Below are positions 48,970 to 50,829 of a DNA stretch of 64,000 nt, in pieces. The stretch lies in NCBI GenBank assembly GCA_963762255.1, contig CAVXKA010000001.1, positions 384,001 to 448,000 on the forward strand, read 5' to 3'. The translations under genes were made by a program, and so were the position numbers. The notes under the pieces were generated by a model. It did not search any database and had not been told where the DNA came from. It saw only the letters and a list, made by a program, of their open reading frames with translations. Positions within the stretch are counted from its first letter, which is position 1. Each line of letters opens with the position of its first letter. Origin of the DNA: Candidatus Eiseniibacteriota bacterium. Its GTDB lineage: Bacteria; Eisenbacteria; RBG-16-71-46; JABDJR01.

Positions 48970-50400
48970 GTGAAACCCAGAGTCAAGCTTATAGTCGGCC
49001 TCGTCATCGCCGCGGCGTCGGTGCTCGTGCTCATTTCCCTGGTGCGCCAGGGCAAGTGGGATCTCGAGCACGTGCTGCTGTGGACCGTGGTGTGCCTGGT
49101 AAGCGAGCTCTTCTGGGTGAAGACGCCGAGCGGGGACTCGGTTCAGAGTCTCGCCGCCACCGCCAAGCTCTCGGCTATCCTCATTCTCGACGTCTGGGCG
49201 GCCCTGCTCACCATCTTCGTGAGCACGGTGGTGGGGAACTTCATCTTCCGCCGCTCGAAATGGTATCGCGCGGTCTACAACGGCTCACAGCTCCTGCTGG
49301 CCGGCGCCGCGGCGGCCCTCGTGTATCAGGCCCTCGGTGGGACCCCCTTCCTGAACACGTTCAGTCTTCCCGGCGGACAACGCATGGAAGCGGTCGCCGG
49401 AAGCCTGGCCGATCGTCGGTTCCTCTCCGCGTTCCTCCTCGCCAGCATCAGCTACATCATGGTCAACAACACGCTCATGGCCTGGCTCATGAGCGCGATG
49501 ACCGGCCGGCGCATGACCACGCTGTGGAAAGAGAACTGCCTCTATGCGGAGGAAGTCCAGAGCAGCCTGGCTCTCGTGCTCCTGAGCCCGCTTCTCGTGC
49601 TGCTCTACGGGACGCTCGGCGTGCCCGGACTGCTCATCCTCTTCGCGTGCCTGGCGCTCGTGCACGCCGCCAATCGCCGCTACCTCGCGGTGATCCGAGC
49701 TCAGGAAGACCTACTCCGCTCGGAACGCATGGCAGCGATGGGCGAGATGGCCGAGGAGATCGGCCGCAGCCTCGGCCACTACCTGAACGATCTCAAGGTC
49801 AGCGCGAACAGGGTGTTCCAGCGCGCCCGTCATGCGGGCGGGGAGAAGGTCCTGCACAGCGCGGAGGTCATCCACATCAACGTGGGGAACATGTCGGCTC
49901 TGGTCGACGGCCTCGCCGCCTTCTCCCATCAGGAGACCCACAAGGTCCCCACCGACCTCAACGAGCTGGTCCGCCGCACCGTGGACTTCGTCCGGCCGCA
50001 GAATCGATTCGACGGGATCCATTTCAAGATCACTCCCGACCCGATCCTGCCCATGGTGAGCATCGACCCCGCGCAGTTGCAGCAGGTCTTCATCAACCTC
50101 CTGACCAACGCCGCCGATGCCCTCGCCGAGGTAGACCGCCCGGTAAAGAAGATCTTCGTCGAGACCCACTACGATCCGGGCGCTCAGCGCGTGCGGGTCG
50201 CGTTCTCCGACAACGGACCCGGCGTCCCCGACGCCAACCTGAACCGCATCTTTGAACCGCACTTCACCACGAAGATCACCGGGCACGGCTTCGGGCTCTC
50301 CACCGCCTTCCGTATCGCCGCCAACCATCGTGGGCTAATCCGGGCGAGCAACATCCCCGGCGGCGGCGCCAACTTCCTCATCGACCTGCCGAACTCCTAG
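48970..50400 (+). CDS. Multi-TM (MASE-like) sensor histidine kinase-like protein with degenerate H-box
   Basis: About 7 TM helices; intact N/G1/F/G2 boxes (NLLTNAADA, DNGPG, FEPHFTTK, GHGFGL); H-box reads GEMAEEIGRSLGHYL. Confidence 0.88.
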   Translation: MKPRVKLIVGLVIAAASVLVLISLVRQGKWDLEHVLLWTVVCLVSELFWVKTPSGDSVQSLAATAKLSAILILDVWAALLTIFVSTVVGNFIFRRSKWYRAVYNGSQLLLAGAAAALVYQALGGTPFLNTFSLPGGQRMEAVAGSLADRRFLSAFLLASISYIMVNNTLMAWLMSAMTGRRMTTLWKENCLYAEEVQSSLALVLLSPLLVLLYGTLGVPGLLILFACLALVHAANRRYLAVIRAQEDLLRSERMAAMGEMAEEIGRSLGHYLNDLKVSANRVFQRARHAGGEKVLHSAEVIHINVGNMSALVDGLAAFSHQETHKVPTDLNELVRRTVDFVRPQNRFDGIHFKITPDPILPMVSIDPAQLQQVFINLLTNAADALAEVDRPVKKIFVETHYDPGAQRVRVAFSDNGPGVPDANLNRIFEPHFTTKITGHGFGLSTAFRIAANHRGLIRASNIPGGGANFLIDLPNS

Positions 50401-50406
50401 CCCCTT

Positions 50407-50451
50407 GTGTCGTCAAGCGGCGACACCATCTGTCGTCAAAAATTGACGACA
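50407..50451. promoter_or_regulatory. Palindromic enhancer-like (bEBP UAS) sites
   Basis: Perfect TGTCGTCAA-AAA-TTGACGACA at 50431-50451 and GTGTCG-N8-CGACAC at 50407-50426; weaker copy at 50499-50519. Confidence 0.7.
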
Positions 50452-50562
50452 CCCTAACGCTTTGCCGGTTCGTAGTTTAAGCTGATGGTCGCGCACGGTG
50501 TCACCTGTTGTTGACGGCGCGCACCGAGACACCCCCTCCACCCGCCGCGCACAACTGCCAGC

Positions 50563-50575
50563 TAACTTGTTGTAT
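50563..50575. promoter_or_regulatory. IHF-like site in AT-rich patch
   Basis: Reverse complement ATACAACAAGTTA matches the CAA-N4-TTR core and lies between the palindromes and the sigma54 promoter. Confidence 0.45.
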
Positions 50576-50614
50576 TAATTAGTGTTGAGGCATTTGCCCC
50601 AGGGACATTGCAAA

Positions 50615-50630
50615 TGGCACGGCCGTTGCG
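50615..50630 (+). promoter_or_regulatory. Sigma54 (-24/-12) promoter
   Basis: TGGCACGGCCGTTGCG matches TGGCAC-N5-TTGC. Confidence 0.85.
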
Positions 50631-50696
50631 TATATGGGTCAGCGTGGTTGGCAAGAGGCCCTGAAGACCTGAACCCGAAGAAGGGGGGAGACAACA

Positions 50697-50789
50697 ATGC
50701 TAGGCATCATCACGAAGATGCTCGCTCTCGCCGGTGAGTGGCAGTGGTACGGCGAGTGGCAGTGGTTTGGCGAATGGCAGTGGTTCTAG
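50697..50789 (+). CDS. 30-aa Trp-rich repeat peptide MLGIITKMLALAGEWQWYGEWQWFGEWQWF
   Basis: RBS AAGGGGGGAG at 50681-50690; ATG 50697 and TAG 50787-50789; repeat variation is synonymous or conservative; own promoter and terminator. Confidence 0.85.
   Translation: MLGIITKMLALAGEWQWYGEWQWFGEWQWF
50733..50786 (+). repeat. Three tandem 18-nt repeats encoding GEWQW[Y/F]
   Basis: GGTGAGTGGCAGTGGTAC / GGCGAGTGGCAGTGGTTT / GGCGAATGGCAGTGGTTC. Confidence 0.95.
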
Positions 50790-50800
50790 TCGCCTGACCG

Positions 50801-50829
50801 GCGGGGGCACAGGCCCCCGCTTCTCTTTT
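50801..50829 (+). terminator. Intrinsic terminator of the peptide gene
   Basis: GCGGGGGC-ACAG-GCCCCCGC followed by TTCTCTTTT. Confidence 0.85.

Follow-up and report, generated by a model that had tools for sequence, protein, structure and literature searches.

The window analysed here, a 64,000-nt stretch of the genome of a Candidatus Eiseniibacteriota bacterium (contig CAVXKA010000001.1, positions 384,001 to 448,000), carries a gene for a membrane sensor of the MASE9 type and, 296 nt after the stop codon of that gene, the start of a short open reading frame (sORF) for a peptide with three tandem Trp-containing repeats; a sigma-54-type promoter and enhancer-like sites lie in the spacer (Table 1). 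On the sequence evidence presented below, the sORF is a real, single-copy gene selected at the amino acid (aa) level, the sensor is no longer a functional histidine kinase, and the sORF is present beside just those orthologs in which phosphotransfer has been lost. The pair appears to form a lineage-restricted regulatory module of one uncultured bacterial family (f1), and its peptide to represent a new small-protein family within a known type of circuit. A first-pass annotation of the window had listed the sensor, the palindromes, the sigma-54 promoter, the sORF, a hairpin behind it and a GEWQW motif in a distant lipoprotein, and all of these were found where it had placed them; it had combined them into a signalling system in which an exported and processed GEWQW(F/Y) peptide is sensed by the adjacent receptor.

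The peptide consists of a 13-aa hydrophobic head, M-[LF]-x-I-I-x-K-x-x-x-L-x-G, followed by three G-E-W-Q-W-[YF] units. A search of the whole 4.14-Mb genome (G000) with a degenerate DNA pattern for GEWQW, as suggested in the first-pass annotation, returned three matches in the sORF, one in the lipoprotein gene and nothing else, and the reversed control returned 0. In all eight f1 genomes, a single-copy homolog of the sORF was located 290-350 nt 3′ of the sensor gene. A profile built from these eight peptides had no match in the remaining 198 of the 206 genomes of the class, and a 19-sequence profile applied phylum-wide again retrieved only the eight f1 genomes, the class and phylum sets being the same 206 genomes. 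Among 30 sensor-homolog loci from 41 related genomes, a W-rich sORF lay downstream of the sensor gene at 8/8 f1 loci and at 0/22 loci of other families. Metagenomic relatives were reached through the sensor, which gave 12 loci, eight of them with a full-length sensor; the sORF was present in all seven with enough downstream DNA, and the eighth contig stops 203 nt past the sensor and so was excluded from this count. The metagenome contigs with the sORF are partly near-duplicates, and the distinct peptides number five. In genome G002, the pair is kept although the sensor is 37% identical and the upstream genes are different. The absence of an analogous sORF beside kinase homologs in relatives had been named first among the findings that would speak against the first-pass proposal; since relatives do carry such an sORF, the proposal held on this point. 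Conservation of this kind places the pattern of elements at the locus far outside what chance would give.

The sequences of the repeats indicate what is being selected. Between lineages, the units change in concert, occurring as GEWQW, GAWEW, GTWEW, GQWEW, GETQW or DWVW. When the units within each of 11 peptides of standard layout were compared, 57 synonymous and 16 non-synonymous codon differences were counted; all 16 non-synonymous differences fell at unit position 6, and positions 1-5 showed synonymous differences only. This count omits three peptides whose units are degenerate, extra or out of register; with these included it becomes 61 versus 56. Conservation of the peptide is highest at the second Trp of the units and in the head (M-x-x-I-I...L-x-G), the last unit almost always ends with F, and the length across the family is 24-36 aa. 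Searching 1.84 billion representative proteins with the sORF profile gave 12 members at E ≤ 0.001, uniform in build. The family was unmatched in NCBIfam and Pfam, full-text literature searches returned nothing with GEWQW or EWQWF, and a topical search returned nothing relevant; it therefore stands as a new, unannotated small-protein family for which the evidence of selection and regulation is unusually clear. A protein atlas search with the peptide gave top scores of 0.75-0.77, to unnamed clusters and below the meaningful level. AlphaFold2 modelled the peptide as one helix (residues 2-28) with a mean predicted local distance difference test score of 74, which is moderate confidence. Complex prediction for residues 1-250 of the sensor, the MASE9 part (14-row alignment), with the peptide (8 rows) scored 0.09 and 0.05 against a mark of 0.32, a result that counts neither way. 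Two wider pattern scans were set aside. Three WQW/EWQW units were found at 16 loci from many phyla in a wide genome collection, as simple repeats read in another frame or as low-complexity open reading frames lacking the head; a scan for triple W-x-W repeats hit 30/206 genomes, with 6-nt or 18-nt simple repeats outside f1 and matches in the reversed control as well, and was uninformative.

The sensor retains an ATP-binding domain and lacks the residue that would be phosphorylated. In Pfam, MASE9 (PF20972) matched residues 54-231 at 26.4 bits against a cut-off of 24.3, a narrow margin, HATPase_c matched at 71 bits, and HisKA gave no match at E ≤ 0.01. The top NCBIfam models were AtoS, ZraS, VirA-like and NifL, every one below its cut-off, and the closest solved kinase core was that of ZraS (9jfj; E 3.4e-23). 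The phosphorylated His of ZraS in 9jfj, and that of FixL chimeras, aligns with Arg266 of the sensor, which is followed by Ser. At this position, 8/8 f1 orthologs carry R, Q or V, with S or T after it, whereas 22/22 best-hit orthologs taken from 11 other families carry H, with E or D after it; in the metagenome relatives, R, Q, E or L was found. No alternative conserved His was present around the H-box region, and the G002 sequence also lacks the FSH motif. The N, G1, F and G2 boxes for ATP binding are intact, with N376, N380, D414, G416, G418, F428, G438, G440 and G442 invariant in 14 sequences. The receptor is therefore no functional histidine kinase, its phospho-acceptor having been replaced throughout f1. 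N-terminal domains homologous to that of the sensor were found in 174/206 genomes, a count for the MASE9-like domain that takes in the unpublished genome G081. As f1 is a single clade, the disappearance of the His and the arrival of the sORF count together as one evolutionary event and not as eight. They provide an example from nature of a two-component sensor whose phosphorylation site vanished at the very node at which a dedicated peptide gene arose.

The consensus sigma-54 promoter and the enhancer-like sites noted at first pass proved to be conserved. A -24/-12 element lies 207-255 nt past the sensor stop codon in 15/15 loci, with the GG of -24 in 15/15 and the GC of -12 in 14/15, G003 having TTGT. 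In 14 spacers, NGTC-N10-GACN occurred 36 times, versus 0.98 on average and at most 4 in 200 shuffles; these sites recur at three positions, as does the 23-nt start-to-start spacing of sites 1 and 2. The perfect palindrome of site 2 is unique in the 4.14-Mb genome, and its counterparts in relatives differ from it by 2-9 mismatches (shuffle mean 9.5). One further genomic site with three mismatches (G000:C2:639242), near an activator gene, was at chance level and was discarded. Since the sORF promoter is of a conserved sigma-54 type with enhancer sites, an NtrC-type activator encoded elsewhere is needed. The genome has rpoN and 23 strong matches to Sigma54_activat, all outside the window, in agreement with the initial expectation that the regulator would be encoded elsewhere.

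Partners of AtoS/ZraS-type kinases are sigma-54 activators. Among the 23, the activator at G000:C2:402082-403602 (L156:2583-4103, minus strand) has an N-terminal 187-aa region with neither a Pfam receiver match nor an aligned phospho-acceptor Asp, and its full-length orthologs occur in 8/8 f1 genomes at 55-83% identity. Its best matches in G008, G009, G010 and G011 are encoded directly upstream of genes of the lipoprotein family described below, and its G003 ortholog is encoded 2.7 kb from a MASE9 paralog; of seven further sensor-homolog loci, this G003 locus was the one with an activator gene nearby, and the other six had none. The gene is a candidate for the missing activator, as a lead and nothing more. 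A second activator (L157:1091-2944) has Glu at the position of the phospho-acceptor Asp. In-frame stop codons were seen in some activator-ortholog matches, namely one TGA in G004:C2, one TGA in G003:C14, two TGA and two TAA in G002:C637, and two TGA and one TAG in G008:C2; these may reflect overrunning alignments, frameshifts or broken genes.

The lipoprotein gene whose product shares GEWQW with the peptide belongs to a family present in 83/206 genomes. A Gly/acidic-Trp tail follows an HFSRY block, at or near the C-terminal end, in 28 of the 30 members read (loci L123-L152), typical tails being GGKAGW, GTADW and GTAEW, and -24/-12 elements were located upstream of all 14 genes read for them (10/10 and 4/4). 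At least five genes of the family, in four genomes, adjoin MASE9 kinase genes (G003:C1, G008:C31, G008:C3, G028:C17 and G033:C230), and the best G000 match of all five adjoining kinases is the sensor of the window. Thus, the connection to the lipoprotein drawn in the first-pass annotation stands as far as sigma-54 control, the Gly/acidic-Trp tail and proximity to MASE9 kinase genes are concerned, but GEWQW itself is confined to one genus, in which GEWQW (G000) and DEWQW (G001) are versions of the tail. The co-variation of peptide core and lipoprotein tail that it had predicted did not appear: besides DEWQW in G001, the lipoprotein tails of G003, where the peptide core is GEWQW, are GTADW and FEQWK, and no lipoprotein homolog was found in genera g4 and g2. 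The lipoprotein gene of the window lies 43 kb from the sensor gene, and no adjacency was found in g4 or g2 either. Taken together, the lipoprotein family is probably an older accessory partner of the MASE9 sensor family, and constitutes a phylum-wide, sigma-54-driven Trp-tail family linked to these sensors.

The predicted transcript extends past the sORF into conserved hairpins (Table 1). Hairpin T1 is kept in 11/11 aligned loci, with a T-run that is weak or displaced in some, and T2 is probably the 3′ end of the transcription unit. In most relatives the loop of H2 reads GCUUCCGGGA, and over H2 and T2 together both-side (compensatory) changes were found in 10/20 predicted pairs. The fold of the predicted transcript had a z-score of -3.07. 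An Rfam search of the locus gave nothing at E ≤ 1 beyond chance-level rows, and a search with three relatives gave none at the gathering score. The region of H2 and T2 could be a 3′-derived small RNA (sRNA) or a protein-binding site. In RNA libraries, 20 entries from 14 studies contained 7-19% of the sequence words of the locus, and contigs were placed for four runs. Contigs from four libraries of four studies fell on 50676-50949, and among these one of 121 nt and one of 120 nt showed 0 differences to the part from the sORF to the hairpin; no contig of the four placed runs fell on 50300-50675 or past 50950, gaps that prove nothing. The contigs fit a transcript, whose start at about 50641 they do not map; as they carry no information on ends or strand and may stem from DNA carry-over, they are a hint of sORF expression and not proof of it.

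From these observations, we tentatively favour a reading, which we hold to be somewhat short of probable, in which the peptide is associated with the membrane and serves as an accessory or feedback factor of a phosphotransfer-dead MASE9 sensor, in a circuit like QseEGF-GlmY, ZraPSR or MgrB. The peptide would stay at the producing cell as a small membrane-associated protein, which would fit both the helix model and the proposal, made by the authors who described MASE9, that the domain binds its ligand inside the membrane (10.1101/2021.11.05.467447). Its hydrophobic head would lie in the membrane, with the acidic Trp repeats at the outer interface, and it would bind or modulate the MASE9 domain. 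Since phosphotransfer is not open to it, the sensor is proposed to control an NtrC-type activator through protein contact, in the manner of NifL and NifA. From the three GTC-N10-GAC sites this activator would switch on the peptide gene, which would give a feedback loop as in MgrB-PhoQ, ZraP-ZraS or QseG-QseE-QseF-glmY. With three or four cloned genes, signalling by degenerate kinases and intramembrane ligands of MASE-type domains would become testable. In a more specific version, which we consider quite unlikely, MASE9 sensors recognise Gly/acidic-Trp tails at the outer face, originally the G-[KT]-A-[GDE]-W of a lipoprotein whose gene neighbours that of the sensor or of its activator, and the His-less sensor of one family gained a free peptide with triple GEWQW that gates NifL-like contact control of a sigma-54 activator with a degenerate receiver. 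If true, this would be a phosphorylation-free 'two-component' circuit with a peptide ligand, of a kind not yet described.

Several observations weigh against an accessory or feedback peptide. Three Glu residues are ill-suited to a transmembrane helix, the hydrophobic head is just 13 aa long, and the helix model is only moderately confident. The carriers of the His-less sensor and the sORF form one clade, f1, and the adjacency of the two genes could partly be inherited gene order. With tblastn, none of the 23 G000 activators was detected within about 5 kb of the sensor orthologs at 12 loci. The candidate activator is not tied to the sORF sites, since 0 GTC-N10-GAC sites were found in the four activator-lipoprotein spacers of G008, G009, G010 and G011. 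In addition, the conservation of hairpin H2 points to a possible action of the transcript as such.

This last point leads to the alternative that the locus produces a sigma-54-dependent regulatory RNA, from about 50641 to T2, whose H2 loop GCUUCCGGGA pairs with targets or binds a protein, the sORF giving it a dual function like that of RNAIII/delta-haemolysin or SgrS/SgrT. Conservation of H2 and T2 with both-side changes in half of their predicted pairs, the lack of a good T-run behind T1 in some relatives, library contigs running beyond T1 to 50949 and the z-score of the fold all agree with it, and sigma-54-driven sRNAs beside kinase genes are known, e.g. glmY (PMC3045617). The peptide, though, is clearly selected at the amino acid level, so that RNA cannot be the whole story, and Rfam has no matching family; we regard a regulatory RNA as unlikely to be the function of the locus. 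In another alternative, the peptide has a job unrelated to the sensor, for instance in some other complex or as a small protein of the envelope or of membrane stress, its position being inherited gene order. Synteny of the four-gene block extends through f1 and the metagenome relatives, every carrier belongs to one clade, and 23 sigma-54 activators in the genome make sigma-54 control common here. Yet G002 keeps the pair despite another upstream context and a sensor of 37% identity, the sORF occurs exactly where the sensor His is lost, and the 535-aa gene downstream in the block also exists in families f2 and f13, apart from the sensor gene and with no sORF; an unrelated job seems improbable. 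Stalling of ribosomes at the six Trp codons, which would determine how far transcription continues past T1 into the RNA or the 535-aa gene behind it, would account for the six Trp codons within 17 codons and the hairpin 10 nt past the stop, with trpE (59373-60938) 8.6 kb downstream. Against such a Trp-codon leader, conservation extends to non-Trp positions and to the N-terminal head, some family members have Ile or Thr in place of the first Trp of each unit, and the fold holds no antiterminator alternative, nothing from the repeat region competing with T1. Moreover, four opposite-strand genes precede trpE in a linkage not kept in g4 genomes, and the 535-aa gene has no known Trp link. The sORF is unlikely to be a Trp attenuator, indeed extremely so.

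Agr and ComQXPA are peptide quorum-sensing systems in which a short precursor is paired with a polytopic membrane kinase, and the first-pass annotation had interpreted the locus in this way. Under such a model, the peptide would leave the cell, either whole or after cleavage into GEWQW(F/Y) units, and act as a diffusible autoinducer sensed from outside by the adjacent receptor. A short peptide gene closely coupled to a polytopic membrane sensor, for which autoinduction is plausible, resembles these systems; the identical tandem units are under selection and change together between lineages, and a predicted secreted M15 peptidase is encoded as conserved upstream neighbour. The defining parts of a diffusible multi-core pheromone are nevertheless missing. 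The receptor lacks the phospho-acceptor His, a 13-aa head stands in place of a leader, the units follow one another without spacers or cleavage motifs, and they differ at position 6, the last one almost always ending with F. Among the neighbours scanned (36725-60938), no AgrB-like, ComQ-like, C39-ABC or radical-SAM gene, and no other processing or export enzyme, was found, nor was an adjacent response regulator. M15 enzymes are cell-wall peptidases, and the M15 gene is not upstream of the pair in G002. Export and cleavage as first proposed were therefore not borne out, and we consider the pheromone doubtful. Darobactin and three-residue cyclophanes are ribosomally synthesised and post-translationally modified peptides (RiPPs) with modified Trp residues, and the peptide could be a precursor of this sort, with enzymes encoded elsewhere cross-linking its Trp residues or modifying them in another way; W-x-W motifs kept identical by selection would agree with this. 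A leader as short as the 13-aa head, the lack of a modifying enzyme among the conserved neighbours scanned and the nearest radical-SAM signal being a sub-threshold match within an adenosine deaminase make a RiPP very unlikely.

Returning to the accessory or feedback peptide, there is a likeness in architecture to QseE(GlrK)/QseG/QseF(GlrR)-glmY of Enterobacteriaceae. There too, a small, separately transcribed sigma-54-dependent gene stands beside the sensor gene, and GlrR binds three TGTCN10GACA sites, plus integration host factor (IHF), upstream of glmY; here, three TGTC-N10-GACA-type sites lie >100 bp upstream together with an AT-rich region (PMC3045617). A lipoprotein may be a further likeness, since QseG activates QseE (PMC6075780) and the present family adjoins MASE9 kinases at no fewer than five loci. 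The differences are that the small gene here encodes a selected peptide, with no match to GlmY or any other Rfam family, that the sensor is of the MASE9 type and has no phospho-acceptor His, that the activator is not adjacent, and that the lipoprotein gene of the window is 43 kb away. In ZraP-ZraS-ZraR, and likewise CpxP-CpxA, a small accessory gene beside the sensor, sigma-54-dependent, feeds back on the sensor. The kinase core is alike, ZraS being the closest solved one as noted above; however, ZraP, at about 140 aa, is periplasmic and made with a signal peptide, as opposed to a 30-aa Trp-repeat peptide, ZraS retains its His, and ZraR is encoded beside ZraS. NifL is a kinase-like protein that keeps its ATP-binding domain, carries out no phosphorylation and controls the sigma-54 activator NifA by contact. 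The sensor is alike in its retained ATP-binding domain, and a NifL model was among its NCBIfam matches; NifL differs in being soluble, with PAS domains, and in being encoded beside NifA, whereas the sensor is membrane-bound and its activator would be encoded elsewhere. MgrB feeds back on PhoQ (PMC2789325). Like MgrB and other small membrane modulators, the peptide is a very small hydrophobic protein whose gene is presumably under the control of the system that it would modulate; it shows no sequence likeness to MgrB, its promoter is sigma-54-dependent, and its sensor is phosphotransfer-dead.

Table 1. Features of the sensor-sORF locus and of the lipoprotein gene, in window positions
Feature	Position	Strand	Description
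Lipoprotein gene promoter, sigma-54 type	6777-6791	+	TGGATC-N5-TTGC
Lipoprotein gene	6836-7507	+	Lipobox LPGC; GEWQW in C-terminal tail (7433-7447)
Membrane sensor gene	48970-50400	+	476-aa protein; N-terminal MASE9-type polytopic domain, then degenerate ZraS/AtoS-like dimerisation and ATP-binding core
Enhancer site 1	50408-50425		TGTC-N10-GACA; equivalent position occupied in most of 14 spacers
Enhancer site 2	50431-50451		Perfect 9+3+9 palindrome; includes TGTC-N10-GACG at 50431-50448; starts 23 nt after start of site 1
Enhancer site 3	50499-50516		TGTC-N10-GACG; third site about 65-70 nt past site 2 in 11/14 spacers
AT-rich stretch	about 50555-50590		Between enhancer sites and promoter; termed an IHF-like site at first pass; conservation by eye only partial
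Sigma-54 promoter	50615-50629	+	TGGCAC-N5-TTGC; -24/-12 element at conserved position
5′ leader	50642-50696	+	Conserved GCGTGGTTGGC block, 2-3 mismatches in closer relatives
Shine-Dalgarno sequence	about 50682-50690	+	Present upstream of the sORF in all 8 genome loci
sORF	50697-50789	+	30-aa peptide MLGIITKMLALAGEWQWYGEWQWFGEWQWF; from open reading frame listing, homologs and profile searches
Hairpin T1	50800-50831 (hairpin 50800-50821)	+	GGCGGGGGC/GCCCCCGC and T-rich tail; 10 nt past sORF stop; from terminator scan
Hairpin H2	50906-50935	+	Loop GCUUCCGG(G/C)A; RNAalifold 8-pair stem, both-side changes in 6/8 pairs
Hairpin T2	50944-50984	+	Long GC stem and T-run, stronger terminator-like hairpin than T1; compensatory changes; T-runs strong in most relatives

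The genes for the M15 peptidase, the sensor, the sORF peptide and a 535-aa protein form a syntenic block across f1 and the metagenome relatives. The M15 peptidase (47767-48888), which has a dockerin/EF-hand-like repeat and an N-terminal membrane anchor and is predicted to be secreted, is encoded as the upstream neighbour of the sensor in all relatives but G002. The 535-aa protein (51100-52707) looks cytoplasmic and belongs to no Pfam or NCBIfam family. Its gene follows the sORF unit directly in f1, with 41-75% identity, and occurs also in f2 (2/2) and f13 (2/3). Because in f2 and f13 it is found without the sORF and away from the sensor, it was regarded as a neighbour only and dropped as a component of the system. 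Further neighbours encode a TPR protein and metabolic functions, and no RiPP enzyme was present among those scanned. The trpE gene, for anthranilate synthase component I, is followed by more plus-strand genes, and its linkage to the sORF locus across the four opposite-strand genes is kept in G001 and was not seen in g4 loci. On the minus strand of the window, a phosphodiesterase-like protein (46470-47711) and an FG-GAP repeat protein (4319-5800) are both predicted to be secreted and end in an FlgD Ig-like domain, which suggests that this organism uses such ends as a common C-terminal domain for sorting or anchoring.

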